NCBI GenBank assembly: GCA_964385825.1
Contig: CAYLPX010000002.1
Coordinates: 1,281-65,280, forward strand
Length of the DNA stretch: 64,000 bases
Reading direction: 5' to 3'
From: an uncultured Candidatus Saccharibacteria bacterium
GTDB lineage: Bacteria > Patescibacteriota > Minisyncoccia > Phycocordibacterales > JAKFXT01
Notes under the pieces: generated by a model
The model's input: only the letters and a program-made list of their open reading frames with translations
Databases searched by the model: none
What the model was told of the DNA's origin: nothing
In this document: one piece after another, positions 3,631 through 38,494 of the stretch
Layout: each line of letters starts with the position of its first letter
How positions within the stretch are numbered: position 1 is the first letter of the stretch
Made by a program: the position numbers and the translations under genes

Positions 3631-3639
3631 AAAAAGAAA

Positions 3640-4083
3640 TTAGAGTGCGATAGTGCCTCCGGCCTTTTCTATCTTTTCTTTGGCAACGCTAGAAACGAGA
3701 CAATCCGAAACAATAAGTTTCTTGGTGATGTCCCCAGTTCCTAGGATCTTAACAGCAGCCGTACTTCCCTTGTTGATTGAAACGAGTTTCTTCTCTACAA
3801 GAATATCGCGTGAGACACTATCGCCTGAGGCAAAGTGCTTATCAAGTACAGAGAGGTTGATAACCACATTAGGAAGCACGATTGACTTTAGGAAGTTGCG
3901 TCCACGACCACGAAGTTTTGGAATCTTCTTAATGGTGTCACGCATCTGAGGACGTACCTTGTGTCCCGCACGAGCAAGCTGACCCTTAGTTCCACGGCCC
4001 GATGTCTTACCACGCTTACCACCACGCCCTACACGTGGCGCTTTGTGATTCTTTGTTGTTCTTTTAAGTTCGTGTATCTGCAT
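3640..4083 (-). CDS. rplO: 50S ribosomal protein L15
   Basis: 147 aa. The N-terminus is Gly/Arg/Lys-rich (GRGGKRGKTSGRGTKGQ). It sits between rpsE and secY. Confidence 0.85.
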   Translation of the reverse strand: MQIHELKRTTKNHKAPRVGRGGKRGKTSGRGTKGQLARAGHKVRPQMRDTIKKIPKLRGRGRNFLKSIVLPNVVINLSVLDKHFASGDSVSRDILVEKKLVSINKGSTAAVKILGTGDITKKLIVSDCLVSSVAKEKIEKAGGTIAL

Positions 4084-4084
4084 A

Positions 4085-4783
4085 TTAGTTGGTTGAAGTT
4101 ACTGCCTTTGGAGACTTACGGGTACGGATGGTTTCGAGAGCCTTGATAGTAGCGCGAGCATTGTTGATACCGTTCTTACTGCGAGAGAAAATCTTGCTGG
4201 TTACATCAGTTACCCCTCCAAGTTCAAGTACACTTCGCACAGCTCCTCCAGCTACAAGTCCGCGACCACGGCTTGGCACCAACATAGCAACTGAAGCTGA
4301 ATACTTAGCCTCAACATCATGAGGGATGGAACTATTCTTAGTAAGAGGAATGGTGATCATGTGCTTCTTTGCATCACGAAAAGCTTTTTCAATTGCTCCA
4401 GCTGTGTCCCCTGCCTTACCGGTTCCAACACCTACCTTACCTTTACGGTTTCCTGCTACAACCGCAACAGAGAAACTCATACGACGTCCACCGGCAACTA
4501 CACGAGTCACGCGACGGAGTGAGATAATCTTCTGGTCAAACTCTGGCTTTACACGTTCTTCACGACGATTGCCGCGGCGTGCTCCAGGACGTCCTCCCTT
4601 GCGAGTATCACGCTGTGTATTACGAGGGCGAAACTCAGGATTAGCAGCTGTTTTTGAAGCTGGCGCTCCTTCAGCAACAACTTCAGGTGTAGCCTCTTCC
4701 TCTGCCATAGTAAGAGGCGTAGCTTCAGCCACAACATCTGCTGCTGTCTCTACTGTTTCAGTTGTAATAATTTCGTCATTCAT
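4085..4783 (-). CDS. rpsE: 30S ribosomal protein S5 with low-complexity N-terminal extension
   Basis: The S5 core (VTRVVAGGRRMSFSVAVVAGNRKGKVGVGTGKA) is preceded by about 75 aa of acidic or Ala/Thr-rich extension. It directly abuts rplO, so there is no L30 gene. Confidence 0.85.
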   Translation of the reverse strand: MNDEIITTETVETAADVVAEATPLTMAEEEATPEVVAEGAPASKTAANPEFRPRNTQRDTRKGGRPGARRGNRREERVKPEFDQKIISLRRVTRVVAGGRRMSFSVAVVAGNRKGKVGVGTGKAGDTAGAIEKAFRDAKKHMITIPLTKNSSIPHDVEAKYSASVAMLVPSRGRGLVAGGAVRSVLELGGVTDVTSKIFSRSKNGINNARATIKALETIRTRKSPKAVTSTN

Positions 4784-4786
4784 ATA

Positions 4787-5149
4787 TTAAAAATTGAGTC
4801 CTCCCTTACGTGCCCCCTCTGCCACTGCCTTCACATTTCCGGTATATAGGAATCCGCCGCGATCAAAGACTACTGTTCCTACCTTCTTTGCGGTAAGTGC
4901 CTTAGCAATCTCTTCACCTACACGGAAAGACTTTTCAAGCATAGTCCCCTTCTTGTCTTTAAGTGAGGTTGCAGAAGCAAGTGTAACACCTTTTATGTCA
5001 TCAATCGCCTGCGCGTAAATATAACGATTGGACTTAAAGACTGCAAGACGAGGTGTTGTAGCAGACCCCTCCATGTGCGATCGACTCCGATTGTGACGTC
5101 GGATACGAGCGAGTGTTTTTGCATTAGTTGTAGTTTTAACGTAAGCCAT
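4787..5149 (-). CDS. rplR: 50S ribosomal protein L18
   Basis: 120 aa; basic N-terminus ARIRRHNRSRSH; operon position. Confidence 0.85.
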   Translation of the reverse strand: MAYVKTTTNAKTLARIRRHNRSRSHMEGSATTPRLAVFKSNRYIYAQAIDDIKGVTLASATSLKDKKGTMLEKSFRVGEEIAKALTAKKVGTVVFDRGGFLYTGNVKAVAEGARKGGLNF

Positions 5150-5164
5150 AAATAAAAAGTGGGA

Positions 5165-5698
5165 TTATACAGATTTCTTACCTTCCTTACGGCGGATAAC
5201 CTCATTGCGATAACGGAATCCCTTACCCTTGTATGGTTCTGGTTTCTTAAGCGCGCGAACTGAAGCAGAGAATGATCCGACCTCTTCTTTGTTAATACCA
5301 GAAATGGTAATAATGTTCTTTTCAGCCTTAACCGCAAGTGAAGCAGGTATTGGTACATGTACAAGATGAGAAAAACCAAGTGCAAGAATAAGTTCTGCCC
5401 CCTTCACTTCTGATTTAAAACCTACTCCTTCAAGAATAAGCTCCTTAGTGTATGGAGTATTAACACCCTGCACCATGTTCTTAATATGAGAAGCCGTTGT
5501 TCCCCAGAGAGAAATAGTCTGCTTATCCTCTTTCTTAGGACTTACCTTCACATGATCTCCCTCAACAATAATATTGAGCTCTGGACGAAAATCCCGAGTG
5601 AGTTCACCCTTAGGACCCTTAACCACAACAGTAATCCCAGAAACAGAGACTGTGGTTCCAGTTGGGATTCCGATAAGTTGTTTGCCGACGCGACTCAT
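5165..5698 (-). CDS. rplF: 50S ribosomal protein L6
   Basis: 177 aa. Starts MSRVGKQLIGIPTGTTVSVSG, like L6 (MSRIGKxPI). Two-domain L6 pattern. Confidence 0.9.
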   Translation of the reverse strand: MSRVGKQLIGIPTGTTVSVSGITVVVKGPKGELTRDFRPELNIIVEGDHVKVSPKKEDKQTISLWGTTASHIKNMVQGVNTPYTKELILEGVGFKSEVKGAELILALGFSHLVHVPIPASLAVKAEKNIITISGINKEEVGSFSASVRALKKPEPYKGKGFRYRNEVIRRKEGKKSV

Positions 5699-5722
5699 AA
5701 TGTTGAATATAAATATAGAAAA

Positions 5723-6115
5723 TTACCAGATTGAAAAGAGAGCCTCTCCACCGACCTTTTCCTTACGAGCCTCACGATCAGTCATAAGCCCCCTTGGAGT
5801 TGAAAGTACCATAATTCCCTGTCCGAACTTCACTGGGCGAATGTCGCGCACACCAAAGTACACACGCTTACCAAGCTTACTTACACGCTTAACTCCGCGG
5901 ACCTCAGGCTTAGTACCTTCGTACTTTACAGCAACCTCTAGATACTTCTTCACCTTCTTACCTTTTTTCTCAAAGGCAGTAATGAATCCCTCACGAAGTA
6001 GGATCTCCGCAATAGCCTGCTTCATCTTTGAGTGAGGTACGACAACAGTCGCCTTCCCTGCCATAGAAGCATTCTTAAGACGCGTTATGAAGTCTGCAAT
6101 AGGATCGCTTACCAT
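5723..6115 (-). CDS. rpsH: 30S ribosomal protein S8
   Basis: 130 aa; [21 protein letters not shown] matches the S8 N-terminus (DPIADMLTRIRNA). Confidence 0.9.
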
Positions 6116-6294
6116 GATGATTTTTTAATTCCTGGAATATTTCCATCATTAGCTAACTCGCGGAAACAAATGCGGCAAAGGTCAAAGTCACGCATATATC
6201 CACGCTTTCTTCCGCAACGAAAGCAACGATGAGTAGCCCGAGAAGAGAACTTCGGGGTCCGAGTTGAACGTACTACTGTTGATGTTTTTGCCAT
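6109..6294 (-). CDS. rpsN: 30S ribosomal protein S14 type Z (zinc-binding)
   Basis: 61 aa with CxxC...CxxC ([20 protein letters not shown]). Confidence 0.9.
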
Positions 6295-6475
6295 TGTGTA
6301 ATGTAGCTAACTACCACCAAGGATTTCTTGATGATTTTACTTGTTTTTTGGTAACCCAGCCACTAAAGAAACGGTGGTTTCTCTCGCGCTCCAGCATTAC
6401 CTCCAACAAAAAAGGCACTAAGTGCTTAGAGAGGATATTAGCAAGGATTATAGGGGGTGTCAAACAGGAGAACTT

Positions 6476-6501
6476 GTAGGGACAAACCGTAGGGACAAAC
6501 C
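6476..6501 (+). repeat. perfect tandem direct repeat gtagggacaaacc x2
   Basis: Read directly from the sequence: gtagggacaaacc gtagggacaaacc. It lies about 80 bp upstream of the island ORF at 6579. Confidence 0.9.
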
Positions 6502-6578
6502 TAAGAAATCTAGCTATTTTACAAGTGGTTTGCTAGAGTGCAGCCAGCTGTAAACATCCACCAATCGAAGGAGGTCGC

Positions 6579-7004
6579 ATGATCTACCAAGTAGGCAGTC
6601 ACACCTTCACTCCCGGTCTCTACATGAAACTGAAGACGGGTGAGCTTTTTCTCTTCCACCACGCCGTCCAAAACAGCCGCAAGGGCACCGGGGAGCCAGG
6701 TTCGACCAAGATGGTATATGTCTACTCGAACATTGCCGACGGGGACTTCATCTACCGACATCTTCCCTACTCACAGCTTCTTGCACCCAGCATCGCATTG
6801 CAGCTCTGCGACATGTGCAACCCAATGGACAAAGCGCTTGTAAGGATAGTGTACGATGCCTTCATGCAAAATACTGTTTTCGCGCGAAATTTTGCAAAGC
6901 CATTCGCCGAGTGGGCGAGCATGCACCGTATCCCGCTTTCGGTAAGCACCTCGATTGCAGGGATTCTGCATTTCGACACCCACCCCATGTTTCATGGGGT
7001 CTGA
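6579..7004 (+). CDS. hypothetical protein on GC-rich island, antisense to the ribosomal operon
   Basis: 141 aa ORF preceded by AGGAGG (gaaggaggtcgcATG). It has high GC and high GC3, unlike its neighbours. A GC-rich terminator follows. Confidence 0.5.
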   Translation: MIYQVGSHTFTPGLYMKLKTGELFLFHHAVQNSRKGTGEPGSTKMVYVYSNIADGDFIYRHLPYSQLLAPSIALQLCDMCNPMDKALVRIVYDAFMQNTVFARNFAKPFAEWASMHRIPLSVSTSIAGILHFDTHPMFHGV

Positions 7005-7010
7005 CTCATC

Positions 7011-7051
7011 CCCCCCCCCGCCGCGGAGTACCGCGGCGGGGACTATTTTTT
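7011..7051 (+). terminator. GC-rich hairpin plus T-run after the island ORF
   Basis: cccccccccgccgcggagtaccgcggcggggac followed by tatttttta. Confidence 0.65.
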
Positions 7052-7060
7052 ATATTCCTA

Positions 7061-7103
7061 AAACAAAAACTCCTCCCTAGTTTAGGGAGGAGTTTTTGTT
7101 TTG
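7061..7103. terminator. bidirectional intrinsic terminator immediately downstream of rplE
   Basis: aaaacaaaaactcctccctagtttagggaggagtttttgtttt: a perfect 10 bp stem with A/T runs on both sides. It falls between rplE and rpsN, which are normally co-transcribed. Confidence 0.75.
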
Positions 7104-7104
7104 C

Positions 7105-7662
7105 TTATTTCTTTGCAGCTTCTTTCTTAAAGGGAAAACCTAAGTGATCAAAGAAGGCCTTAGCTTCAGCGCGAGTCTTGGCAGTTGTTACAATAGTGAT
7201 AGCAAGACCGAATACATCTTTGATTTCTTCATCCACCACTTCTGGGAACACTACATGCTCCTTAAGACCGATGGTCATGTTACCGATATTGTCTACTCCA
7301 GAAGCATTAATGCCACGAAAGTCCTTAGTACGAGGAAGAGACACGTGGAGCAGTTTATCTAGAAAACCGATCATGCGGCTTCCGCGAATGGTTACCTGAT
7401 ATCCAATAGGGTCTCCAATACGAGTCTTGTAGCTCGCAATAGCTTGCTTAGCCTTACGAACTACTGGCTTCTGACCAGTGATTTTGGCAAGACGATCAGC
7501 AACCAGTTCTAGCTTTTTCTTATCCTTAAATGAACCAGTTCCAACTGAAACCACCACCTTAGTAAGACGAGGTGCCTGCATCACGTTCTTGTAGCCGAAC
7601 TGATCCTTCATTACCTTGAAGGATTCTTCACTTAATGTTTTTACGCTTTTGATAGTTGCCAT
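7105..7662 (-). CDS. rplE: 50S ribosomal protein L5
   Basis: 185 aa; L5 family (MQAPRLTKVVVSVG...); position between rplX and rpsN. Confidence 0.9.
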   Translation of the reverse strand: MATIKSVKTLSEESFKVMKDQFGYKNVMQAPRLTKVVVSVGTGSFKDKKKLELVADRLAKITGQKPVVRKAKQAIASYKTRIGDPIGYQVTIRGSRMIGFLDKLLHVSLPRTKDFRGINASGVDNIGNMTIGLKEHVVFPEVVDEEIKDVFGLAITIVTTAKTRAEAKAFFDHLGFPFKKEAAKK

Positions 7663-7697
7663 ACAATTTAAATTAGGACAGTTAGTCGGTTCAAGAA

Positions 7698-8012
7698 TTA
7701 TTTGCCAGAAATAGTCGCTCCACTCTTTGCTGCAACACGGCTACGCTTCCCTTCTTCACGTACGATACGCACGCGAGTAGCGCCACCCTTCTTTGGATCA
7801 ACAATACTTACATTTGAAACATGTATAGGCATAGCTTTCTCCACAATCTGCCCCTTAGATCCACCCTTACGTGCCTTCTGGTGACACTTCTTAACATTCA
7901 CACCATCGACGAGCACCATATCGCGACTTGGGAGCGCGCGAGAAACCGTCCCGGTCTTACCTTTGTCCTTACCAGAAGTCACTATGATGTTGTCGCCTTT
8001 TCTGATTTTCAT
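7698..8012 (-). CDS. rplX: 50S ribosomal protein L24
   Basis: KOW-motif L24 (MKIRKGDNIIVTSGKDKGKTG). The start is more likely the second Met of the tracked ORF. Confidence 0.85.
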   Translation of the reverse strand: MKIRKGDNIIVTSGKDKGKTGTVSRALPSRDMVLVDGVNVKKCHQKARKGGSKGQIVEKAMPIHVSNVSIVDPKKGGATRVRIVREEGKRSRVAAKSGATISGK

Positions 8013-8024
8013 ATGCATTAAAAA

Positions 8025-8396
8025 TTACACTACTTCTGGAGCTAGAGAAATAATCTTTTGGAATCCCATTTCAGAAAGTTCACGAGGAATAGGACCGAAT
8101 ACACGTCCGCCACGTGGCTCCTTACGCTCCTTATCGAGTACCACAACTGCATTCTCATCAAAACGAATGTAAGAACCATCCTTGCGGCGAAAATCTTTCT
8201 TAGTGCGAACTACAATAGCAGGAAGAATTTCCTTTTTCTTTACGCCCTTACGAGGCTCGGCGATTTGCACTGAGAGAATAACGATATCCCCAATACGAGC
8301 ATAGCGCTTCTTAGAGCCACCAAGCACCTTAAACACACGTCCGATTTTAGCTCCGGTGTTATCTGCTATTTTGACGATTGATCGTGGTTGAATCAT
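8025..8396 (-). CDS. rplN: 50S ribosomal protein L14
   Basis: 123 aa; MIQPRSIVKIADNTGAK matches the L14 N-terminus (MIQ..T.L.VADNSGA). Confidence 0.9.
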   Translation of the reverse strand: MIQPRSIVKIADNTGAKIGRVFKVLGGSKKRYARIGDIVILSVQIAEPRKGVKKKEILPAIVVRTKKDFRRKDGSYIRFDENAVVVLDKERKEPRGGRVFGPIPRELSEMGFQKIISLAPEVV

Positions 8397-8420
8397 ACGG
8401 TTTAGTTTATCTTAAAGTAG

Positions 8421-8699
8421 TTAGACTACCTTGAAGTGCTTATCTTTAGAAATTGGCGGACACTCAACGATAGTTACCGTATCCCCTAGCGCCTTAGTGT
8501 TCCCAACATCATGCGCCTTAAAACGCTTACTCTGCATAACGTACTTGTCGTACTTTGGGTGTTTTTCGTAACGGTCGATACGGACAACAATAGTGTCCTT
8601 CATCTTGGTAGACACAACAACCCCAGTAAGCTCACGAGGAGCTCCAGTTGTTACAACTACTTTAGTTGCGGCTGTTTGTTGTGTTTTCTTGGTTGCCAT
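8421..8699 (-). CDS. rpsQ: 30S ribosomal protein S17
   Basis: 92 aa; OB-fold S17 pattern; operon position. Confidence 0.85.
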   Translation of the reverse strand: MATKKTQQTAATKVVVTTGAPRELTGVVVSTKMKDTIVVRIDRYEKHPKYDKYVMQSKRFKAHDVGNTKALGDTVTIVECPPISKDKHFKVV

Positions 8700-8705
8700 A
8701 TGGTT

Positions 8706-8897
8706 TTACTTTGAAGTAACCGTACTGTCATTAAGAAGGGTCATGATATGTGCAATTGTCTTCTTAATACCACGGCCCTCGCGAACATTACGGGTTTTAC
8801 TCCCTGCAATACTGAAACGAAATACTCGCAAAGCCTCTCGCTTATCAGCAAGTAGCTTCATGAGTTCTGATTCAGTTTTGGTTCTAAGTTCCTTCAT
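8706..8897 (-). CDS. rpmC: 50S ribosomal protein L29
   Basis: 63 aa; MKELRTKTESELMKLLADKREAL is L29-like. Confidence 0.8.
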   Translation of the reverse strand: MKELRTKTESELMKLLADKREALRVFRFSIAGSKTRNVREGRGIKKTIAHIMTLLNDSTVTSK

Positions 8898-8927
8898 AAG
8901 TCCTTGATATTAGCCTCTTTTTAGTGC

Positions 8928-9353
8928 TTACGCAAGTTCGCGAGAAATCACCTTACACTTTACGGGAAGCTTAGCTCCAGCCTTGCGAAGTGCTTCACGA
9001 GCCTCTTTCTCTGGTACCCCATCAATCTCAAAAATGATACGTCCTGGGCGAGTTTCAAACTGGTATCCCTGAAGGTCTCCCTTACCCTTTCCCATACCTA
9101 CTTCAGCTGGCTTACCTGTATATGGGAAATCAGGGAAAATACGGATCCACATCTTACCAGTCTTACCAGCAGCACGTGATACTACCTTACGAGCTGCTTC
9201 AATCTGGTTAGAGCGAATACGAGCAGCTGTGGTAGCTTTGAGCCCAAAGGATCCAAAAGAAAGAGTCACGCCGCGAGTGTCCGCAGTCATACGCTTTGGG
9301 TTACGACGAGTTGTTTGTCGCTTTCGGTATTTAACTTTCTTTGGGACTAACAT
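8928..9353 (-). CDS. rplP: 50S ribosomal protein L16
   Basis: 141 aa; MLVPKKVKYRK..., the L16 family N-terminus. Confidence 0.9.
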   Translation of the reverse strand: MLVPKKVKYRKRQTTRRNPKRMTADTRGVTLSFGSFGLKATTAARIRSNQIEAARKVVSRAAGKTGKMWIRIFPDFPYTGKPAEVGMGKGKGDLQGYQFETRPGRIIFEIDGVPEKEAREALRKAGAKLPVKCKVISRELA

Positions 9354-9380
9354 AGTAGTGTAATTAAAAAATATCTAAAA

Positions 9381-10055
9381 TTATGAACGACGTTTCTTGT
9401 CCTCGGCGAACACCTCACCTTTGTAAATCCAAACCTTAATACCAAGGTCTCCATAAGGAAGGTGTGCACGCTCGCGAGCAAAGTCAATATCAGCACGGAA
9501 CGTCTGAAGTGGGATACGGCCACGCTTCAACTGCTCAGAGCGAGCAATATCTGTTCCACCAAGGCGTCCTCCGATTAAGATACGCACTCCCTTCACATCG
9601 CGGTTGGCTACTACCTTATCAATAGTCTGCTTGAGTACACGGCGGTATGGAAGACGCTTTTCAAGCCCTTCAACAATCATGAAAGCAACAATGTGTGCAT
9701 CAGATTCAGGTGAGCGAACTTCCTCTATATCCATCTTGAACTCTTTAGTCTTAGCTAGATTGTTCTTTTCAATAAACTTAGTGATGTCTTTGCGGAGCTT
9801 CTCTGATCCCTCACCGGAGCGACCGATAATCATACCAGGGCGTGAAGTCTTAATGATAAGACGCATCGTGTCTGCTCCACGCTCAATACCAACATCACTC
9901 ACAAAGAAACCACGAAGGCGTGTCGCTAAATACTTGCGAAGGAGTGTATCACTCTTAAGAAAATGCTTGTACGTGTCACCCACTCCAAACCAGCGGCTTT
10001 TCCAGTCGCGGATGATTCCAAGTCTATGTGCGTATGGGTGAACGGTGTGTGACAT
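9381..10055 (-). CDS. rpsC: 30S ribosomal protein S3
   Basis: 224 aa; KH domain; GIIRDWKSRWF motif. Confidence 0.9.
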   Translation of the reverse strand: MSHTVHPYAHRLGIIRDWKSRWFGVGDTYKHFLKSDTLLRKYLATRLRGFFVSDVGIERGADTMRLIIKTSRPGMIIGRSGEGSEKLRKDITKFIEKNNLAKTKEFKMDIEEVRSPESDAHIVAFMIVEGLEKRLPYRRVLKQTIDKVVANRDVKGVRILIGGRLGGTDIARSEQLKRGRIPLQTFRADIDFARERAHLPYGDLGIKVWIYKGEVFAEDKKRRS

Positions 10056-10069
10056 ACTTTATAAAATAA

Positions 10070-10495
10070 TTATTTATCGGTTTTCTTAGTTACTTTCTTA
10101 GCAGCCTTTTTTGGTGCAGCCTCTACAGCAGCTACCGCTACTTTCTTACTACCCTTCTTTGGAGCTTCCTTACGAGTATCAAGAACAACTGCAATATGGC
10201 TTGAACGCTTCTTGATAACGTACGCAGCTCCACGAGCACGAGGAGATACACGCTTAAGCACAAGCCCCTTGTTCACCGTAACACTCTTTACTACAAGCTT
10301 ATCAGCATCAATGCCGAGGTTTGCCTTAGCATTGGCGGCAGCAGAGGAAATGAGCTTATGCACTGGGTTAGCCCCACGCTTCACAAGAAAAGCAAGCTCG
10401 CCGAGCGCTTGAGGCACGCTCTTACCAGTTACGAGGTTAGCGATAAGGCGAACCTTGCGAGGAGACTGTCTGTAATTAGTAAGTTGTGCTTTCAT
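10070..10495 (-). CDS. rplV: 50S ribosomal protein L22 with Lys/Ala-rich C-terminal tail
   Basis: L22 core plus an AAVEAAPKKAAKKVTKKTDK tail. Confidence 0.9.
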   Translation of the reverse strand: MKAQLTNYRQSPRKVRLIANLVTGKSVPQALGELAFLVKRGANPVHKLISSAAANAKANLGIDADKLVVKSVTVNKGLVLKRVSPRARGAAYVIKKRSSHIAVVLDTRKEAPKKGSKKVAVAAVEAAPKKAAKKVTKKTDK

Positions 10496-10512
10496 AATAT
10501 TAAAATTCTAGC

Positions 10513-10860
10513 CTACTTCTTCTTAGCATCGGCTGTTGATGCAGTAGCGGCTTTAGCGGCAGCGATTTCGCTCTCCTTACGCTTCTGCTCTAGTTCCTTC
10601 TGCATCTTACCACCATGGCGAGTAAACTTCTTAGTTGGTGAAAACTCACCAAGGCGATGTCCCACCATGTCTTCAGTCACGAGTACAGCGATATGATCCT
10701 TACCGTTATGCACCCCGAAAGAAAAACCTACCATTTCAGGAGAAATCTGACTGCTGCGGTACCACGTCTTAATGACCCCAGTTTCCTGTGGCTTTTTGCC
10801 CTCAATTTTCTTGAGTAGCTTTGGTTCAACGTATGGACCTTTTTTAAGTGATCGTGACAT
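10513..10860 (-). CDS. rpsS: 30S ribosomal protein S19 with C-terminal extension
   Basis: [19 protein letters not shown]... FTRHGGKM; S19 family. Confidence 0.9.
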
Positions 10861-11027
10861 GAAAAATGTAAGTTTTTGGTTGGCTCAGCTTCTTTTTTGG
10901 CAATTAAAAAAACCTTATCGCTAAGGTCTCCAAGGCGCCAACCATGGAAGCTATAGGAGTAGACTATCAAACCCATACAAATTGTCAAACCCCCGCCATC
11001 CCCCCACCAAAAGTAGTAAATCATAAA

Positions 11028-11055
11028 TTGACAAAAACTATAAATGTGTTAGATT
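11028..11055 (+). promoter_or_regulatory. sigma70-like promoter candidate for the island ORF at 11126
   Basis: TTGACA (11028-11033), a 16 nt spacer, then TAGATT (11050-11055). A hairpin plus T-run follows at 11061-11087 (ccggttcacttaggtgaacgttttttg), and the SD and ATG follow that. Confidence 0.4.
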
Positions 11056-11125
11056 AAAAGCCGGTTCACTTAGGTGAACGTTTTTTGTTCCTCACAACGC
11101 CCCCCTAGGGGGAGAAAGGTAGCAC

Positions 11126-11695
11126 ATGCTTAGCAGGAAAAAATACCCCACCCTCGTGGGACTCATGGCCACCATTCCGGCTGTGAAAGTGGAAGTGGAG
11201 CAACTTCTCGCGGAGAAGTCCACTCCGAGCGGCGCCGCCGACAGGGCCGTGCACCAAATCGGTGCGGTGTTGGCCAAGCACGGCATGCTGAACGGCTTCG
11301 CGAAGTTGGCAGCAACCCCTCCGACCGCGCAAAGTACGGGTTCGGACGCTACCAGCTTCGGCTTCCCGATCGGCAACGATCGGCATGAACTCACCCGCCT
11401 GCGATTGCTTGCGGCCAAGGCTGAGGGCAACTACGATGAAGTGCGCGCCGAGGCCATGGCCACGCTTACGAACTGGGGAGGCAAGAGCCCCAGACGAGTC
11501 ACGGCCGGCCTCATCAGCCAAATCGTGGAAGGCACAGGGCGGCCCCGCTTCATTGCGGAACTGCTTGCCGCCAGCCCCACCGAACAGCATGGCGAGTTGC
11601 TGAAGCATGTCGCAGGCTACTACAGCAGAATCGGCCTGCGGGCTTCGCCCAAAAAGCTCCTCGCCGAGGCGCGGCAGGCAGGCTACCAGATCTAA
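11126..11695 (+). CDS. hypothetical protein on GC-rich island, antisense to the ribosomal operon
   Basis: 189 aa ORF with very high GC3 (gcc, ggc, ctg codons). SD ggggagaaaggtagcacATG. A strong terminator follows. The product is Ala/Leu-rich and helical. Confidence 0.5.
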   Translation: MLSRKKYPTLVGLMATIPAVKVEVEQLLAEKSTPSGAADRAVHQIGAVLAKHGMLNGFAKLAATPPTAQSTGSDATSFGFPIGNDRHELTRLRLLAAKAEGNYDEVRAEAMATLTNWGGKSPRRVTAGLISQIVEGTGRPRFIAELLAASPTEQHGELLKHVAGYYSRIGLRASPKKLLAEARQAGYQI

Positions 11696-11726
11696 GCTCT
11701 AGGCCGAGTAGGCCATGTTCTTCTCC

Positions 11727-11765
11727 GTCGGGAACCCTTCGTGGTTCCCGACTTTTTTATTTTTA
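11727..11765 (+). terminator. intrinsic terminator of the island ORF
   Basis: gtcgggaacccttcgtggttcccgac followed by ttttttattttt. Confidence 0.75.
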
Positions 11766-11897
11766 GAAAAATATTTGTAACCTTTTTTAAAATCTTCTAG
11801 TTTCATTAATACAAATTGATACTTGATGATTGCTAAGCCGAAAGTAGTTTAGCAGTCGCCAAGTGGAAATTTGGAAGTTTCCGTTTTGAATGCAAAT

Positions 11898-11925
11898 CCC
11901 CGCCGGCGCATGCGCGCCGGCGGGG
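11898..11925. repeat. perfect 28 bp GC palindrome
   Basis: ccccgccggcgcatgcgcgccggcgggg, sitting at the 3' end of the minus-strand island ORF. Confidence 0.85.
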
Positions 11926-11941
11926 TGTTCCGATGGCACCG

Positions 11942-12373
11942 CTACGAATGAGGTGCCGAACTGGTGTTGAAGAGTTCGGGGTCCGGCCAATCAAGCTTCG
12001 CCCCATCCAAAAGCGGCAAGGCCGCCTGGAAAAGATGGGCGATGTTGAAACACGCCGACTGGACGTCTTTTCCTGCCGTGTCGTCCTGCGCATCCTTCTG
12101 CAGAACGCGTATGAACATCTCCCCCACACGTATCCGACAGCGCCCCTCCTCACCTCGGCTCAAAACGCCTTGCCGAAAGGAAGCGGTGAGGATCTGGAGC
12201 AGTGTCTTGATTTCGTCACGATTCGGCCACGCTGAAGACTGAGCCCCAACCGATACCCTCTTCGTGAGTTGCTCAAGACGGTCCAGAATGAGCTCAACCA
12301 GAGTGTCCGCGACGCTCTTGATCGGCCGCTGCACGTACGCAACAGCCTCATTTATTTCAGGGTTTTCGTGCAC
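11942..12373 (-). CDS. hypothetical protein on GC-rich island
   Basis: 143 aa ORF with a GTG start preceded by GGAGGTG. High GC. The overlapping alternative ORFs on both strands make the coding call uncertain. Confidence 0.4.
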   Translation of the reverse strand: MHENPEINEAVAYVQRPIKSVADTLVELILDRLEQLTKRVSVGAQSSAWPNRDEIKTLLQILTASFRQGVLSRGEEGRCRIRVGEMFIRVLQKDAQDDTAGKDVQSACFNIAHLFQAALPLLDGAKLDWPDPELFNTSSAPHS

Positions 12374-12435
12374 GGGGCACCTCCAAGAAAAAAGGGTTAT
12401 ACAGCTCGCTTGAGCTTATACTCCACTAGTAAAAA

Positions 12436-12476
12436 GTCAAACGCCGCGGGCCTCCCGCGGCGTTTGACTTTTTGTT
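12436..12476. terminator. bidirectional intrinsic terminator immediately downstream of rplB
   Basis: gtcaaacgccgcgggcctcccgcggcgtttgac, flanked by aaaaa and tttttgttt. Confidence 0.75.
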
Positions 12477-12490
12477 TAATTTTTTCCGAA

Positions 12491-13333
12491 TTATCGCTTC
12501 TTTCCAACCTTGCGGCGAGAAACGATAAGGCGATTTGAGTATTTCTTTGGAGTTCGTGTCTTCTGACCCTTTCCAGTTGGGCGTCCCCACTTACTCTTAG
12601 CGCGGCGGAGTCCTCTTCCCTGACGTCCTTCACCTCCTCCATGTGGGTGATCAACTGGGTTCATAGCAGATCCGCGAACTGTTGGGCGAATACCCTTCCA
12701 GCGATTACGTCCTGCTTTACCAATCTTCTCGAGATGGTGTTCGTCATTAGATACTTCTCCAACTGATGCCCATGCAGTGTTGTGTACCTTACGAACTTCA
12801 GTTGATGGCATCTTAAGAAGGGTGTAGTCACCATCTTGCGCGATAACCTCAGCTGAGTTTCCGGCAGAGCGGCAAAGCTTAGCTCCACCTTCTGGCTTAA
12901 TTTCAATATTATAAACAAGCGTACCTACTGGCATAGCACCGAGCGGAAGACGGTTAGCAGCTGTAATAGGAGCCTTCTCTGCTGTTACAATCTCCTGTCC
13001 TACTACCACACTCTTTGGAGCCAACAGGTAACGCTTGTCACCATCCTTGTACCCAACAAGTGCAATAAAGCCTGTGCGGTTTGGGTCGTACTCAATAGTC
13101 AAAACCTTTCCCGGAACATTAAGTTTGTTCATCTTGAAATCAATAAGACGATACTGACGCTTGTGTCCTCCTCCCTTATGGCGAGTGGTGATGCGCCCAG
13201 CATTGTTGCGTCCTGATCCGCGGCGAAAACCCGTAAGGAGTGCCTTGTGCGGCTTATCCCCTGAAAGGAGATCACGATATGGAATCGTGGTCATGTTACG
13301 GCGTGATGGACTTGTTGGTCGGTACGTTTTCAT
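12491..13333 (-). CDS. rplB: 50S ribosomal protein L2
   Basis: 280 aa. The L2 signature (GGGEGRQGRG ... HPHGGGEG) is evident. Confidence 0.9.
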   Translation of the reverse strand: MKTYRPTSPSRRNMTTIPYRDLLSGDKPHKALLTGFRRGSGRNNAGRITTRHKGGGHKRQYRLIDFKMNKLNVPGKVLTIEYDPNRTGFIALVGYKDGDKRYLLAPKSVVVGQEIVTAEKAPITAANRLPLGAMPVGTLVYNIEIKPEGGAKLCRSAGNSAEVIAQDGDYTLLKMPSTEVRKVHNTAWASVGEVSNDEHHLEKIGKAGRNRWKGIRPTVRGSAMNPVDHPHGGGEGRQGRGLRRAKSKWGRPTGKGQKTRTPKKYSNRLIVSRRKVGKKR

Positions 13334-13347
13334 AGCTCTTTAATTAT

Positions 13348-13698
13348 CTATACAAATTCAATCTTATCTCCGTCCTTAAGATATACGTAGGCCTTGCGAG
13401 AAGCAGCGGTCTTACCACGCTTGCCACGAGCAACCACACGCTTAGCGGGAGTCTTCACAATAGCGATCTTAAGTGGGTGTACTTTGTAGAGTTTAAACAC
13501 TGCCTCCTCAACAGCCCCCTTAGTAGTTCCCTGTGGAATATCAAAGGTGTAGACGTTGCGTTCAGCAAGTACCGTTGCCTTCTCAGTGATACGAGGAATC
13601 ATACGAAAAGTAGCTTGGTTTACACCTGACTTTGCCTTAGTAGTAGCTTCTACTACTGCAGCTGATCCTTCTTCTTTTTTATTGGAGAAAATAGCCAT
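13348..13698 (-). CDS. rplW: 50S ribosomal protein L23
   Basis: 116 aa; operon position between rplD and rplB. Confidence 0.85.
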   Translation of the reverse strand: MAIFSNKKEEGSAAVVEATTKAKSGVNQATFRMIPRITEKATVLAERNVYTFDIPQGTTKGAVEEAVFKLYKVHPLKIAIVKTPAKRVVARGKRGKTAASRKAYVYLKDGDKIEFV

Positions 13699-13700
13699 AC

Positions 13701-14354
13701 CTATTTAGTTATACTCTTAACATAACTCTCTCCATCAACGATAGCCACATACTTGTAGTTAATGAGGTCTGCTACGTTTAAGTTACGGGCTTCAACAAGA
13801 GAAATATTACCAAAGTTGCGGAAACTCTTTTCAACAGCAGTGTCCTTCTTGGCAAGGGCCATCATAAGTGCGTTCTTACGCTTTGTTGGCATAGCTTCAA
13901 ACCCCTTAACGTTTCCAAGCTTGTTGAACACAGCCTTAGCTTCTTTTGTCTTGGCCTCAGGGAGAGCGATACTATCTAGGAAAAGCACTTCATTATCACG
14001 AACCTTTTGAGAAAGAAGTGTGTAGAGCGCCTTCTTACGCATCTTGTCGTTTACCTTACGATCATAGTTCTTATCATTCTTTGGACCGAAAGTTACACCT
14101 CCATGGCGCCAGATTGGCGAGCGCTTTGAACCATGACGTGCACGTCCTGTTCCCTTTTGCTGCCACGGCTTCTTGTTGCTACCTGCAACCTCTCCACGAT
14201 CTTTAGTGTGAGCCGTACCGTTGCGGCGACTTGAGAGCATAGAAGTTACTACTTGGTGAACCAAGTCAGCATTCCAAGGTAGTCCAAAAATGTCCTCAGG
14301 TAGTGTAAGAGTACCTGCTTTCTTTCCTTCTTGATTGTAAAGTGTTGCTTCCAT
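13701..14354 (-). CDS. rplD: 50S ribosomal protein L4
   Basis: KPWQQKGTGRARHGSKRSPIWRHGGVTFGPK motif. Confidence 0.9.
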   Translation of the reverse strand: MEATLYNQEGKKAGTLTLPEDIFGLPWNADLVHQVVTSMLSSRRNGTAHTKDRGEVAGSNKKPWQQKGTGRARHGSKRSPIWRHGGVTFGPKNDKNYDRKVNDKMRKKALYTLLSQKVRDNEVLFLDSIALPEAKTKEAKAVFNKLGNVKGFEAMPTKRKNALMMALAKKDTAVEKSFRNFGNISLVEARNLNVADLINYKYVAIVDGESYVKSITK

Positions 14355-14359
14355 ATGTT

Positions 14360-14968
14360 TTATTTTGCCTTGATCTCAAGTAAAGTACCGCGACGACCAG
14401 GAACAGCTCCTTTGATTATCATTTCATTCTTGTCAGTATCAATAGCAAGTACCTTAAGGTTACGCACCGTAATACGATCAGATCCCATGCGACCTCCCAT
14501 GCGCATACCCTTTGGTACGTGTGAGCGAAGTCCGCCTGAAATTGATCCTGGTTCACGCTCGGCGTGAGCATTACCGTGAGTGCGAGGACCTCCCGCGAAA
14601 CCATGGCGCTTAATAACACCCTGGAATCCCTTACCCTTAGAAATACCAGAAATCTCGAGTTTGTCCCCCACAGTAAAGTTAGCTAGCGTTACTTCATCTC
14701 CCACTTGCATAGTAGATTCTGCAGCAAGACGAACCTCAATAAGTTCTGAGAAGTTAGGAAGCTCCTTTAGGTGTCCTTTCATGGCCTTGTTTGCAGCTTT
14801 TTTACCGGGGAAACCACCGAGCTGAACAGCAAAATATCCGTCTGTCTTCTCGCCCTTCACTTGAGTAACAATAAGAGGGCTGATAGACACTACGGTACCA
14901 GCAGAAACACGCCCCTTCTCATCGAAGATCTGTGTCATCTCTTTCTTTTTACCAAGTAAGAATTTCAT
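14360..14968 (-). CDS. rplC: 50S ribosomal protein L3
   Basis: 202 aa; L3 family; follows the rpsJ region. Confidence 0.9.
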   Translation of the reverse strand: MKFLLGKKKEMTQIFDEKGRVSAGTVVSISPLIVTQVKGEKTDGYFAVQLGGFPGKKAANKAMKGHLKELPNFSELIEVRLAAESTMQVGDEVTLANFTVGDKLEISGISKGKGFQGVIKRHGFAGGPRTHGNAHAEREPGSISGGLRSHVPKGMRMGGRMGSDRITVRNLKVLAIDTDKNEMIIKGAVPGRRGTLLEIKAK

Positions 14969-15135
14969 TCTATAAAAAATGCGACCCCATAAAACTATAG
15001 TGTCGCCAGTAGAAAGGTCTCAAATACTAACCGAGGCCTTTTTGTCTGGCGGAACTTTCTCTCGGAATCCGAAAGTGTTCACAGAACGCAATAGAAGGCA
15101 TATTACACGACCCTAGAAAAAATGCAAATGTTAAA

Positions 15136-15158
15136 GCCGAGGCGCAGCGCGCCTCGGC
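15136..15158. repeat. GC-rich palindromic hairpin
   Basis: gccgaggcgcagcgcgcctcggc followed by cttttgggg. Confidence 0.7.
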
Positions 15159-15176
15159 CTTTTGGGGAACACCCCG

Positions 15177-15491
15177 CTACACACGAGGATTCTTGGGAAG
15201 CTGCGCGGAAAAGACGATAGGGGCTCCGCGTCCTCGACGAGGGGGCTTTTGGGAAACTCCAGCCCCCTCCTTTTTCGCAGCATTCTTCTGTGCCCGGGCC
15301 GCCCTTTCCGCCAACACCTTTGTCACATGTTGGGGTGCCAACACTTGCCCGGTTGCACTTTTCCATTTCTGATCTATCGGACTTAACCGATAGACCGTTC
15401 CATAATGCACGAGTTCATCTTTACGCATAAAAGCCCTCTCTAAACAATTCTTAAGAAACCTTATCACAACTATCTTTTTCACAAAAATCAA
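15177..15491 (-). CDS. possible small basic protein on GC-rich island (uncertain)
   Basis: 104 aa ORF. Its C-terminal half is GC-rich and basic (RAQKNAAKKEGAGVSQKPPRRGRG). The overlapping alternative frame means it could be noncoding. Confidence 0.25.
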   Translation of the reverse strand: MIFVKKIVVIRFLKNCLERAFMRKDELVHYGTVYRLSPIDQKWKSATGQVLAPQHVTKVLAERAARAQKNAAKKEGAGVSQKPPRRGRGAPIVFSAQLPKNPRV

Positions 15492-15570
15492 TTGACGTAT
15501 ATGAAGGATGAGGAGTACGCTTATTATTGGGTTAGTTCACCACACTGAAGTACCAACCAGGAGAAGAGCC

Positions 15571-15927
15571 ATGCCAGGAAGAGTGGTTGATACCTATAGT
15601 TCCCGCAGCATAGATGAGCTGCTTGCCATGATGACAGCAGACGTGGTCAATCGACCAAGGCCTACTGCTTCCCCCCTTTTTCAAGCTATTGAACACCGCG
15701 GACTACATCGCGGTGAAAAAGGAAAACCCGACAAGGTAACCCTGGCAGGGATCCTGAAGTACGCCAGGGCCCAACTGGAACAGGAAACTGAGACCAAGAT
15801 ACTTCTCGCCTTCGCCAAGCTCATCAATTCAATCCTAGACGACGTTGCCGATTTCGATGATGGGCTGCCGCGGCAATCCTTCGAGAAGGCTGTTGCGAAA
15901 ATTCCGCCACACTTGGCACAGAACTGA
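15571..15927 (+). CDS. hypothetical protein on GC-rich island, antisense to the ribosomal operon
   Basis: ATG at 15571 preceded by AGGAGA (ccaggagaagagccATG). It is the internal start of the tracked ORF 15508..15927. High GC; terminators follow. Confidence 0.45.
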   Translation: MPGRVVDTYSSRSIDELLAMMTADVVNRPRPTASPLFQAIEHRGLHRGEKGKPDKVTLAGILKYARAQLEQETETKILLAFAKLINSILDDVADFDDGLPRQSFEKAVAKIPPHLAQN

Positions 15928-15939
15928 TCTGTGCCAGCC

Positions 15940-15970
15940 CCCCCGCCCTAAGGCGGGGGTCGTTTTGTGC
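15940..15970 (+). terminator. GC hairpin plus T-run after the island ORF
   Basis: cccccgccctaaggcggggg followed by tcgttttgtg. Confidence 0.6.
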
Positions 15971-15986
15971 CACGAACTTCAAAAAA

Positions 15987-16029
15987 CAAAACCCCTCCCT
16001 CGCGTCGCGAGGGAGGGGTTTTGTTTTTT
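15987..16029. terminator. bidirectional intrinsic terminator immediately downstream of rpsJ
   Basis: aaaacccctccctcgcgtcgcgagggaggggttttgtttttt. Confidence 0.75.
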
Positions 16030-16042
16030 GATAATGCTTTAT

Positions 16043-16414
16043 TTACATCATCTTCACATCAATTGAAACACCGGAGGGAAGTGAGAGGTTGGTGAGCGCC
16101 TCTACAATCTTCGCTGTTGGGTTCACAATATCAATCAAACGCTTGTGCACTCTCATTTCAAACTGCTCACGAGCATTTTTGAAAATAAATGACGAACGAT
16201 TAACTGTATATTTCTTGATGGTCGTTGGGAGAGGAACTGGTCCTTCAATCTTGGCATCAAAACGCATTGCAGTGTCCATAATTTGCTTGACTGATGCGTC
16301 AAGAATCTTATGCTCATACGCCTGTACACGGAGACGAAGTTTACCCATATCCCCTCCTTCAGTAGCCTTAGCTTTTTTAGGAGCGGCTTTCTTTTTAGTG
16401 GTTACTTCGGCCAT
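16043..16414 (-). CDS. rpsJ: 30S ribosomal protein S10 with Lys-rich N-terminal extension
   Basis: S10 core (LRLRVQAYEHKILD ... FEMRVHKRLIDI) with an MAEVTTKKKAAPKKAKATEG leader. Confidence 0.9.
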   Translation of the reverse strand: MAEVTTKKKAAPKKAKATEGGDMGKLRLRVQAYEHKILDASVKQIMDTAMRFDAKIEGPVPLPTTIKKYTVNRSSFIFKNAREQFEMRVHKRLIDIVNPTAKIVEALTNLSLPSGVSIDVKMM

Positions 16415-16451
16415 ATAGTTTTAGGTTAAGGAATAATCCTTAGCACTTAAT

Positions 16452-17651
16452 TTAGGCAACGATCTTAGTAACAACTCCAGCACCAACTGTCTTACCTCCT
16501 TCACGGATAGCGAGACGCTGCTTTTCTTCAAGAGCAATAGGAGCTACAAGCTTTACCTTAAAGGTAACGGTGTCTCCCGGCATAACCATTTCAACACCTT
16601 CCTTAAGGGTTACTTCACCAGTTACGTCAGTAGTACGTACGTAGAACTGAGGCTTGTATCCAGAGAAGAATGGAGTGTGACGTCCTCCTTCCTCCTTACT
16701 TAGAATGTACACCTCAGCCTCAAACTCGGTGTGTGGATTAACAGATCCTGGCTTTGCAAGCACCTGTCCACGATGGATATCATCTTTCTTAAGACCGCGA
16801 ACAAGGAGTCCAGCATTATCTCCCGCCTGACCTTGCTGAAGACTCTTGTTGAACATTTCAACACCTGTAACGGTTGTCTTTACCGTGTCCTTAAGACCGA
16901 TAATTTCCACTTCTTCACCTACCTTGATAGTACCGCGTTCGATACGACCGGTTACTACCGTTCCTCTTCCTTCAATAGAGAAGATGTCTTCAACTGGCAT
17001 AAGGAATGGCTTATCAAGTTCACGTTCTGGAACTGGAATGTAGGTATCAAGCGCGTTAACGAGCTCAAGTACCTTCTTTGCCCACTCATCATCAGCAGAG
17101 GTTGCTTCAAGAGCCTTAAGACCTGATCCACGGATAACTGGGGCGTTAGCTCCATCAAATCCCTGTTTGGTCAAAAGCTCACGAACCTCTTCTTCCACAA
17201 GATCAAGCATATCCTTGTCATCCACCATGTCACACTTGTTGAGGAACACGATAATGCGAGGTACACCCACCTGCTTTGCAAGGAGCACGTGCTCACGAGT
17301 CTGAGGCATCACACCATCAGTTGCAGCTACCACAAGAACAGCACCGTCCATCTGAGCGGCACCAGTAATCATGTTCTTAATGTAGTCCGCGTGTCCTGGG
17401 GCATCAATGTGCGCATAGTGACGGGTGTCGCTAGCGTACTCGTTGTGCGAGATATTAATTGTAATACCGCGAGCCTTTTCTTCCGGTGCTGAGTCAATGT
17501 CATCAACTCCCTTCATTTTAACTTCTTTACCTGCAAGGTGAAGAACGTTAAGAATAGCCGCAGTAAGAGTGGTCTTACCGTGGTCTACGTGACCGATAGT
17601 ACCTACGTTTACGTGAGGCTTACTACGATCAAAAACTGCTGCTTCTGCCAT
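16452..17651 (-). CDS. tuf: elongation factor Tu
   Basis: 399 aa; [18 protein letters not shown] and NKCD GTPase motifs. Confidence 0.95.
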
Positions 17652-21474: not shown

Positions 21475-21607
21475 TGCGAAACCTTGGACCCACGAAAAAT
21501 TTTAGTAATCATTGTGATTAAATACGGAAGAAAACATTATCTTAATAAGTATCTATAATTAAACCATAGGAAGATGGCGGAGTAAAACGAGCTTAGAGTA
21601 TAAGAAA

Positions 21608-21644
21608 CCCCCTACAAACCCGCTGGTTTGTAGGGGGTTTCTTT
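21608..21644 (-). terminator. intrinsic terminator downstream of the 171 aa gene
   Basis: ccccctacaaacccgctggtttgtaggggg, flanked by T-rich sequence on the minus strand. Confidence 0.65.
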
Positions 21645-21653
21645 AAAAACTTA

Positions 21654-22169: not shown

Positions 22170-22200
22170 GTGGGTTAATTATACATACAAATATACAATT

Positions 22201-22228
22201 AACAGCTCACGTTAAAGCGTGAGCTGTT
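22201..22228 (-). terminator. hairpin downstream of the 2831 aa giant gene
   Basis: aacagctcacgttaaagcgtgagctgtt. Confidence 0.6.
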
Positions 22229-22250
22229 AATAATTAGGCTATGCCAGTAA

Positions 22251-33064: not shown

Positions 33065-33068
33065 ATAA

Positions 33069-36017: not shown

Positions 36018-36060
36018 AACAGTTTATAGTTTTTAGTGGATAGTCTTATAGAAAACAAAA

Positions 36061-38483: not shown

Positions 38484-38494
38484 AAAATCCCGCA

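Follow-up and report, generated by a model that had tools for sequence, protein, structure and literature searches.

We analyzed a 64,000-nt stretch of DNA (hereafter the window; positions 1,281–65,280 of contig CAYLPX010000002.1, assembly GCA_964385825.1) from an uncultured Candidatus Saccharibacteria bacterium, focusing on its S10-spc ribosomal protein gene cluster and on three gaps within that cluster that contain orphan genes. All coordinates are window positions. The cluster lies on the minus strand, and Pfam matches together with gene calls on identical public contigs placed its genes in the conserved, canonical order from rpsJ to secY, as the initial annotation of this locus had read it. 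The rpmD gene (L30) is absent from the cluster. The absence of L30 is usual in the Candidate Phyla Radiation (CPR). The first group of closely spaced genes (16043–17651) consists of tuf (16452–17651; gene call, with a GTP_EFTU match on the identical contig L081) and rpsJ (16043–16414; Pfam Ribosomal_S10), which are 37 bp apart. The second (12491–14968) comprises rplC (14360–14968), rplD (13701–14354), rplW (13348–13698), and rplB (12491–13333), all assigned by Pfam and separated by 2–14 bp. The third (7105–10860) runs from rpsS through rplV, rpsC, rplP, rpmC, rpsQ, rplN, and rplX to rplE (7105–7662; Pfam and gene calls), with internal gaps of 6–35 bp. The Pfam match places rpsS, encoding an S19 protein of 115 amino acids (aa), at 10513–10860; the gene had previously been started at 11024, but no S19 domain was found in the open reading frame (ORF) at 10728–11024, which appears to be open by chance. 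The fourth group (2359–6294) starts with rpsN (6109–6294; Pfam and gene calls) and continues with rpsH, rplF, rplR, rpsE, rplO, and secY, identified by Pfam and by gene calls on contig L093. The groups are separated by 810 bp between rplE and rpsN (gap 1, 6295–7104), 1630 bp between rplB and rpsS (gap 2, 10861–12490), and 1074 bp between rpsJ and rplC (gap 3, 14969–16042), whereas the remaining cluster junctions in the window all measure 37 bp or less. The gaps are GC-rich, as had been noted, with a GC content of up to 0.64 compared with a window mean of 0.444.

A perfect palindrome, A-tract and T-tract included, opens each gap immediately downstream of the preceding gene's stop codon. The three palindromes correspond to the strong terminators that the initial annotation had placed after rpsJ, rplB, and rplE, and each forms a stable GC-rich hairpin with a U-tract on both strands, as is characteristic of bidirectional intrinsic terminators. 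The predicted terminator after rpsJ (T3, 15979–16031) has 26-nt arms and a minimum free energy (MFE) of −44.4 kcal/mol (z −11.7), that after rplB (T2, 12431–12473) has 20-nt arms and an MFE of −35.2 kcal/mol (z −8.7), and that after rplE (T1, 7060–7102) has 20-nt arms and an MFE of −29.5 kcal/mol (z −7.9). Folding is equally stable on both strands for all three, which rank among the four longest perfect inverted repeats of the 64 kb. In a sister species (loci L001 and L085, CAZIPS010000006.1; 94% L2 identity and approximately 80–88% DNA identity), the T3 hairpin is kept, with two compensatory double substitutions and no disruptive changes, and a bidirectional terminator also occurs at the position of T2. 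Like known bidirectional Rho-independent terminators, T1–T3 are perfect GC-rich palindromes with A-tract and T-tract flanks between convergent genes. They differ from the usual ones in that their arms are 20–26 bp long including the A/T tracts, in that they are doubled by a unidirectional hairpin in two of the gaps, and in that termination at them is predicted from sequence. We know of no work on termination in CPR bacteria. Each insert had been described as bracketed by bidirectional terminators, but each has such a terminator at one end only, beside the upstream ribosomal gene, and the opposite end is an AT-rich promoter and 5′ untranslated region.

The inserts had also been described as antisense. 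This is true of three of the five ORFs in the gaps, which are on the plus strand, but the other two, of 143 and 83 aa, are on the strand of the operon. Read along the operon strand, gap 3 contains T3, a plus-strand hairpin found by the terminator scan (15940–15959; MFE −18.7 kcal/mol), the antisense orphan ORF that this hairpin follows (15508–15927; 139 aa from the first ATG, or 118 aa in the database form, which starts at 15571), an AT-rich divergent region (15442–15521), a basic 83-aa ORF on the minus strand (15180–15428) preceded by GAGAGGG and ending in a Lys/Arg-rich tail, a hairpin downstream of it (15133–15161), and a noncoding block of approximately 165 nt that reaches rplC. Gap 2 contains T2, the minus-strand 143-aa orphan ORF (11942–12373; GGAGGTG followed by a GTG start, and gene-called on four independent contigs) with its hairpin (11898–11925), a conserved noncoding element of approximately 85 nt on the minus strand (11799–11882), a plus-strand terminator (11727–11752; MFE −19.2 kcal/mol, followed by a T-tract), the antisense orphan ORF to which this terminator belongs (11126–11695; 189 aa from the first ATG, or 176 aa in the database form, which starts at 11165; GC 63%, predicted to be all-helical), and a divergent promoter region that includes the rpsS leader (10861–11125). 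Gap 1 contains T1, a plus-strand hairpin (7016–7041; MFE −27.5 kcal/mol) adjoining a poly-C tract (7010–7019), the antisense 141-aa orphan ORF (6579–7004) with GGAGG before its start and the poly-C tract just past its stop, and the rpsN upstream region (6295–6578). The three antisense ORFs have no overlap with ribosomal genes. Past the antisense ORF of gap 1 or gap 3 come first its own terminator hairpin and then the bidirectional terminator; between the antisense ORF of gap 2 and rplB lie a terminator, the 143-aa gene, and T2.

Promoter prediction in the inserts, which had been proposed as a check on the initial annotation, yielded candidates upstream of rplC, rpsS, and rpsN. These candidates had been expected to lie within foreign DNA, but they occur in AT-rich blocks outside the GC-rich ORFs, and for rplC and rpsS these blocks are also conserved in the sister species. 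The candidate rplC promoter on the minus strand (TTGCAT at 15127–15122, 16 nt, TAATAT at 15105–15100) is perfectly conserved in the sister species. The region that contains it together with a 5′ leader of approximately 125 nt (14969–15135) is mostly near-invariant between the two species and was matched by nhmmer in the sister species only (E 8e−25). A match reported by the promoter scan closer to rplC (TTGAGA-18-TATAGT, 15023–14994) is not conserved there. In gap 2, the divergent promoter region was delimited on both strands by the promoter scan and by alignment with the sister species. Its TTGACA-16-TAGATT sequence (11028–11055) had been put forward as a candidate promoter in the rpsS upstream island, but it belongs to the plus strand and points toward the antisense ORF (start at 11126 or 11165), not toward rpsS. 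On the minus strand, a TTGACA at approximately 10985–10980 precedes an rpsS leader of approximately 100–120 nt, in which an invariant 50-nt segment contains a short hairpin and a run of seven T residues. TTGACA is kept on each strand in the sister species, which was again the only nhmmer match (E 7e−15). Upstream of rpsN, a minus-strand TTGACA-17-TAATAT with a TG extension (6463–6435; 10 of 12 consensus matches in the promoter scan) would give a leader of approximately 140 nt; the sister-species contig ends at gap 1. The AT-rich divergent region of gap 3 is 80% identical to that of the sister species and can be aligned although both flanking ORFs are unalignable at the nucleotide level, and it probably holds promoters as well.

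The identity profile between the two species was 75–91% in most windows of the core genes (lowest 0.66) and 43–53% in the antisense ORFs, whereas short blocks within the gaps reached approximately 95%. One of these is the 85-nt element of gap 2, which is approximately 95% identical to its counterpart compared with approximately 80% for the adjoining coding DNA. It was present in just two species in the nhmmer search, its predicted fold was not significant (z −1.1), and a bidirectional terminator follows it in the sister species. With only two sequences each, the rplC leader, the rpsS leader, and the 85-nt element were too few for covariation analysis. Rfam, searched at the gathering threshold and at E values up to 5, returned only terminator look-alikes and no ribosomal leader family. 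The 5′ noncoding regions of rplC and rpsS resemble the leaders involved in ribosomal protein autoregulation, such as the S10 leader bound by L4 and the spc site bound by S8 (PMC3616713), in being more conserved than the surrounding coding sequence; unlike those leaders, they have no Rfam match, and their positions differ from the regulatory sites of E. coli. The conserved blocks may have promoter and leader roles. In E. coli-type S10 and spc operons, a single transcript for each, short spacing, and no internal terminator or promoter from rpsJ to rpsQ or from rplN to the end of spc are expected, and the sequence predictions for the window do not have this form. The bidirectional terminators, the compensatory changes that keep T3, and the candidate promoters upstream of rplC, rpsS, and rpsN indicate that the cluster is very probably transcribed, as had been proposed, as at least four units: tuf–rpsJ, rplC–rplB, rpsS–rplE, and rpsN onward.

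At least 10 independent assemblies (JGI, ENA, Logan, and NCBI) contained this arrangement at 99.7–100% identity, and the sister species showed the same layout in eight assemblies. The assemblies of the species itself were near-identical and gave no evidence of within-species hypervariation of the inserts. Assemblies differed in the length of the poly-C tract in gap 1 (C9 to C14), and the ends of several contigs fall nearby; these breaks are plausibly due to the poly-C tract and the strong hairpins. An apparent variant in contig L093 looks like sequence error, with probable errors crowded together at the poly-C tract and hairpins. At the end of the JGI contig L081, positions 1–235 (window 7429–7663, in rplE) are 98% identical to the sister species, while the other 10 kb are identical to the window. 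The end represents a chimeric join or, alternatively, recombination within rplE, and it suggests that both species co-occur in one sample. In a scan of metagenomes, no species was found between 94% and 70% L2 identity. Although extremely diverged in sequence, the genes of gaps 2 and 3 occupy corresponding positions in the sister species; the exception is the 143-aa ORF with its hairpin, which is a clean presence/absence difference between the two species.

No Pfam, NCBIfam, or PADLOC match was found for the five insert ORFs or their sister-species counterparts, and PHROGs gave nothing but one weak match (E 0.039). No ORF of the window matched a toxin–antitoxin or anti-phage family in Pfam, PADLOC, or PHROGs at E <0.01. 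Homology searches in large databases, which covered the 176-, 141-, 118-, and 83-aa proteins and not the 143-aa ORF, consisted of word-indexed searches of 5.8 billion proteins and an exhaustive HMMER search of 1.84 billion representatives. The 176-aa protein of gap 2 matched only itself and its sister-species counterpart. The 141-aa protein of gap 1 had itself as its sole match among the 5.8 billion proteins, and in all 10 listed of the 15 contigs found, its gene lies between rplE and rpsN. The 118-aa protein of gap 3 matched itself only among the 1.84 billion representatives, plus two weak matches at E of approximately 3e−4, and the 83-aa protein fell into three clusters only, all within the genus, at 48–60% identity. 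Relatives of the 176- and 141-aa proteins were not found in viral contigs, and there was no paralogy among the insert ORFs. Structure models of the insert proteins were of low confidence, and the AlphaFold2 model of the 141-aa protein was unusable (pLDDT 47.7). A mobile element as the source of the inserts (insertion sequence, transposon, miniature inverted-repeat transposable element, or integron cassette) was rejected because the gaps have no direct or inverted repeats in common, either with one another or with other parts of the window, and no flanking repeats; Pfam and NCBIfam revealed no transposase or integrase.

Several lines of evidence indicate that the insert ORFs code for protein. 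The antisense proteins of gap 2 in the two species share 35–38% identity (E 7e−24) where their DNA is unalignable, and the annotated frame scored 84.7 bits compared with 52 for the best alternative (shadow) frame. The antisense ORF of gap 3 and its positional counterpart share 24% identity (pairwise E 1e−5). Identity with the sister species at codon positions 1, 2, and 3 was 0.54, 0.55, and 0.38 in the antisense ORF of gap 2, 0.41, 0.52, and 0.24 in that of gap 3, and 0.59, 0.65, and 0.33 in the 83-aa ORF. The GC content at the third codon position (GC3) was 0.51–0.76 across the five ORFs (0.66 in both the 143- and the 141-aa ORF) compared with 0.36–0.44 in the core genes; in four of the five, it exceeded that at position 1, which in turn exceeded that at position 2, a coding-type pattern. 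Motifs resembling Shine–Dalgarno sequences precede the starts. Third-position identity between the two species was only 0.24–0.38 in the insert ORFs compared with 0.60–0.63 in rplB and rpsS. Faster protein evolution alone would not produce such divergence, and insert alleles that are more diverged than the neutral sites of their flanks are consistent with old or foreign alleles having replaced earlier ones or with mutation being much faster locally. These insert genes are, on sequence grounds, genus-restricted orphans with a foreign base and codon composition.

A comparison with the syntenic regions of related genomes, which had likewise been proposed, showed that large gaps are concentrated at the same three junctions. 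We located the 22 cluster proteins of the window (21 junctions) in 80 fetched loci, of which the 37 closest (L2 identity 53–94%) were treated as relatives and the other 43, from more distant bacteria, as the comparison set, and counted gaps of at least 400 bp. The window was read as part of a CPR (Patescibacteria) genome resembling Paceibacteria, and the nearest genomes were CPR metagenome-assembled genomes of the Paceibacteria/Nomurabacteria type. Such gaps occurred between rpsJ and rplC in 11 of 30 relatives and 4 of 37 distant loci, between rplB and rpsS in 13 of 28 and 0 of 41, and between rplE and rpsN in 5 of 17 and 0 of 32, whereas the other 18 junctions together gave one case in the relatives (rplR–rpsE) and six in the distant loci. 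Interruption of this cluster, which had been called rare, is therefore rare in bacteria generally, to judge from the absence of large rplB–rpsS and rplE–rpsN gaps in the non-relatives, but not in this clade. Among the relatives with large gaps, a bidirectional terminator stands directly after rpsJ in 7 of 11 and directly after rplB in 8 of 13. In an independent, de-duplicated replication set of 19 close relatives from metagenomes, the large rplB–rpsS gap was reproduced (6 of 12). The cargo at these junctions includes DgkA (in five genomes), OMP decarboxylase, a phosphoribosyltransferase-domain protein, NUDIX, NTP transferase, a sigma-70 family factor, RelB, AbiEii, PemK/MazF, an AIR-synthase-like protein, DUF2238, and many orphans, and ORFs of at least 100 aa in these slots were sense in 28 cases and antisense in six. 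Because the same three junctions are enlarged in many relatives, the breaks appear to be a lineage feature rather than three private insertions, so that of the earlier description of foreign inserts, the foreign base composition stands and the three separate insertions do not. An unannotated cargo family was observed at two different junctions (L013 2329–2841, between rpsJ and rplC, and L033 11023–11739, between rplB and rpsS; 30% identity, pairwise E 4e−15).

In content and order from rpsJ to secY, and in its position next to tuf and str genes, the cluster resembles the canonical str-S10-spc-alpha cluster of E. coli and Bacillus (Brandis et al., PMC6735719, PMC8046335). In the Gammaproteobacteria and Bacilli studied there, the multigene insertions described lie between whole operons, for example, between rpoBC and str or between str and S10 (PMC6735719, PMC8046335). 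In contrast, the breaks in the window fall inside the E. coli S10 and spc operons (after rpsJ, rplB, and rplE), are marked by strong terminators, and are seen repeatedly in a CPR clade. We found no paper on recurrent breaks within these operons in CPR bacteria. Hotspots of horizontal gene transfer that are free of mobile genetic elements and that recombine at their flanking core genes have been described in other bacteria (Oliveira, Touchon, Cury & Rocha 2017, PMC5635113). Like these hotspots, the three slots have the same core flanks with differing content and no integrase or transposase, ComEC is encoded in the window, and recombination in the flanks is plausible. Unlike them, the slots are very small (0.8–1.6 kb, one or two genes), lie inside a ribosomal cluster, and vary in content between species or genera in our comparison, whereas the hotspots were defined in within-species pangenomes.

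The reading that we favor, to which we assign a probability of about 0.68, is that the three fixed junctions separate lineage-typical, terminator-bounded sub-operons and act as slots for accessory genes, here occupied by orphans of foreign composition. The S10-spc cluster of this lineage would be split at rpsJ–rplC, rplB–rpsS, and rplE–rpsN into separately transcribed sub-operons, in which each upstream unit would end in a very strong bidirectional intrinsic terminator and each downstream unit would begin at its own candidate promoter, followed by a 5′ leader of approximately 100–140 nt. These junctions would tolerate extra genes because transcription would already be interrupted there, between extremely conserved genes, and their content would turn over as small accessory genes are gained, lost, and replaced. 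The divergence of the insert genes suggests that old or foreign alleles may have been swapped in through recombination in the conserved flanks, a plausible route of exchange, and a ComEC competence gene is present in the window (38495–40021). Several points weigh against this reading. Termination efficiency and promoter use are predictions, the conserved TTGCAT-16-TAATAT upstream of rplC scores below the threshold of the scanning tool, and, to our knowledge, CPR promoters are poorly characterized. Gap sizes in the relatives were obtained by extrapolating the ends of tblastn matches, and the relatives were classified by L2 identity and record titles rather than by phylogeny. The replication set, with its small numbers, did not clearly reproduce the large gaps between rpsJ and rplC (1 of 13) or between rplE and rpsN (0 of 6). 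No donor of the GC-rich genes was found in the searches made, and the high GC3 persists in both species, which a simple story of recent transfer does not explain. The slots are occupied in both species, which could mean that the orphans serve some location-dependent function. Moreover, the data fit both repeated independent gain and ancestral breaks followed by loss, and these two histories cannot be separated. A bolder version, which we consider possible but doubtful, is that the three junctions are dedicated exchange slots, in which DNA imported through ComEC would recombine across species with the ultra-conserved ribosomal genes as homology arms, accessory genes with alleles older than the species would move between lineages without mobile genetic elements, and the terminators and leaders of the sub-operons would have evolved to make the exchange harmless. 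The GC-rich orphans might then be host-interaction, defense, or ribosome-targeting factors.

The initial annotation had instead suggested that three foreign antisense cassettes were inserted in an intact operon and that convergent transcription interferes with or regulates the ribosomal proteins. The foreign composition of the insert ORFs and the orientation of three of the five, which converge on the upstream ribosomal genes, are as this would predict, and because the promoter at 11028–11055 stands back to back with the rpsS promoter region, coupling of divergent promoters is conceivable; the promoters at 10980–11055 could interact. However, the junctions enlarged in many relatives carry unrelated and mostly sense cargo, the antisense ORFs stop short of the ribosomal genes with predicted terminators in between, and the candidate promoters and leaders that would serve the downstream units fall outside the foreign DNA, in AT-rich stretches that are conserved in the sister species. 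We therefore regard the cassette explanation as unlikely. Antisense regulation of the ribosomal genes in particular is unlikely because two terminators in series would shield them in gaps 1 and 3. Such an arrangement would insulate the ribosomal genes from the inserts rather than couple the two, and the antisense orientation is most likely incidental. We also give little credence to the proposal that the orphans are lineage-specific factors that associate with or regulate the ribosome and are kept in place for co-expression or co-inheritance. The retained positions of the gap 2 and gap 3 genes in the sister species would fit such a role, and the leading candidate would be the 83-aa protein, whose gene shares the operon strand and whose sequence, with its Lys/Arg-rich tail, is conserved at 48–60% within the genus; CPR ribosomes are without some universal proteins (PMC9297842). 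Against this, the families were confined to one genus in the searches made, and their identity between the two species is 24–38% compared with 94% for L2, a speed of change unexpected for ribosome components. In addition, the foreign GC3 favors acquired genes, T3 separates the 83-aa gene from rpsJ, and the same slots in more distant relatives carry functionally unrelated cargo.

The remaining two explanations deny that the inserts are genuine protein-coding genes of this genome. GC-rich islands in AT-rich genomes are a classic signature of noncoding RNA, and the GC-rich stretches might be structured RNAs or other non-protein sequence with chance open frames, as the lack of detected homologues and domains, the low-confidence structure models, and the presence of several open frames in the 11.1–11.7 kb region would allow. 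This is very improbable in view of the amino acid similarity that remains where the DNA is unalignable, the advantage of the annotated frame, the stronger conservation of codon positions 1 and 2 than of position 3, the coding-type GC pattern in four of five ORFs, the Shine–Dalgarno-like sequences, the ORF lengths kept in both species, and the restriction of Rfam matches to terminator look-alikes. An assembly artefact or chimeric contamination from a GC-rich organism, which the initial annotation had itself named as a concern, could be suspected from the contigs that end at or near the gaps and from the chimeric end of L081, which joins the sister species. It is contradicted by the agreement of at least 10 independent assemblies across the junctions and by the eight assemblies of the sister species with the same layout, and the poly-C tract and strong hairpins plausibly explain the contig breaks; we consider this explanation practically negligible.

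Other parts of the window also contained interruptions and orphan genes. The str genes are interrupted, with rpsL and rpsG followed by a 1-kb gap before fusA (33065–34112) that contains a 72-aa ORF without a Pfam match and then approximately 490 nt free of ORFs, ending in a hairpin and a T-tract. Within it, the segment at 33160–33650 on the minus strand has an MFE z score of −2.8 and no Rfam match, and is a candidate structured RNA. The fusA and tuf genes are approximately 13 kb apart (17947–30746), separated by a 2831-aa protein, a 171-aa orphan, and a 1175-aa protein; approximately 4 kb of this stretch (18210–22216) are absent from the sister species. The 2831-aa ORF was considered as a fused rpoBC and rejected, as Pfam shows a giant surface protein with fn3, Ig, and peptidoglycan-binding domains. 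A fourth GC-rich orphan of similar style, a membrane-like ORF of 139 aa (36174–36593, plus strand; GC 65%, GC3 0.85), lies between two bidirectional terminators (36057–36101 and 36643–36666; region 36016–36700), downstream of an L28-like gene at approximately 35776–36015 that was read by eye from the translation. Between the superoxide dismutase gene and comEC (38214–38494), there is a short GC-rich island (38251–38501) with a terminator-like hairpin (38497–38520). Finally, a free-standing 82-nt match to positions 2130–2211 of bacterial 23S rRNA, in the L1-stalk region (RF02541; 53.8 bits, E 3e−13), was found at 43266–43347 on the minus strand. It lies between pgk and a HIT-family gene (context 43180–43470), with a tRNA T-arm-like sequence (GGTTCGACTCC) before it and a terminator hairpin after it, and may represent either a relic fragment or an element that mimics rRNA.

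Textbooks cite the S10-spc cluster for a gene order kept intact by selection, and repeated clade-wide breaks at the same three junctions would qualify this rule, given the terminators, the apparent promoter and leader, and the exchangeable cargo at each of them. In practical terms, these junctions are sites where several contigs that carry phylogenetic markers end in metagenome assemblies. If the reading of lineage-typical sub-operons with accessory-gene slots is correct, the stoichiometry of ribosomal proteins in these reduced organisms would depend on at least four units under separate control, and the junctions would be small and easily found loci, flanked by universal markers, where lineage-specific CPR genes accumulate.

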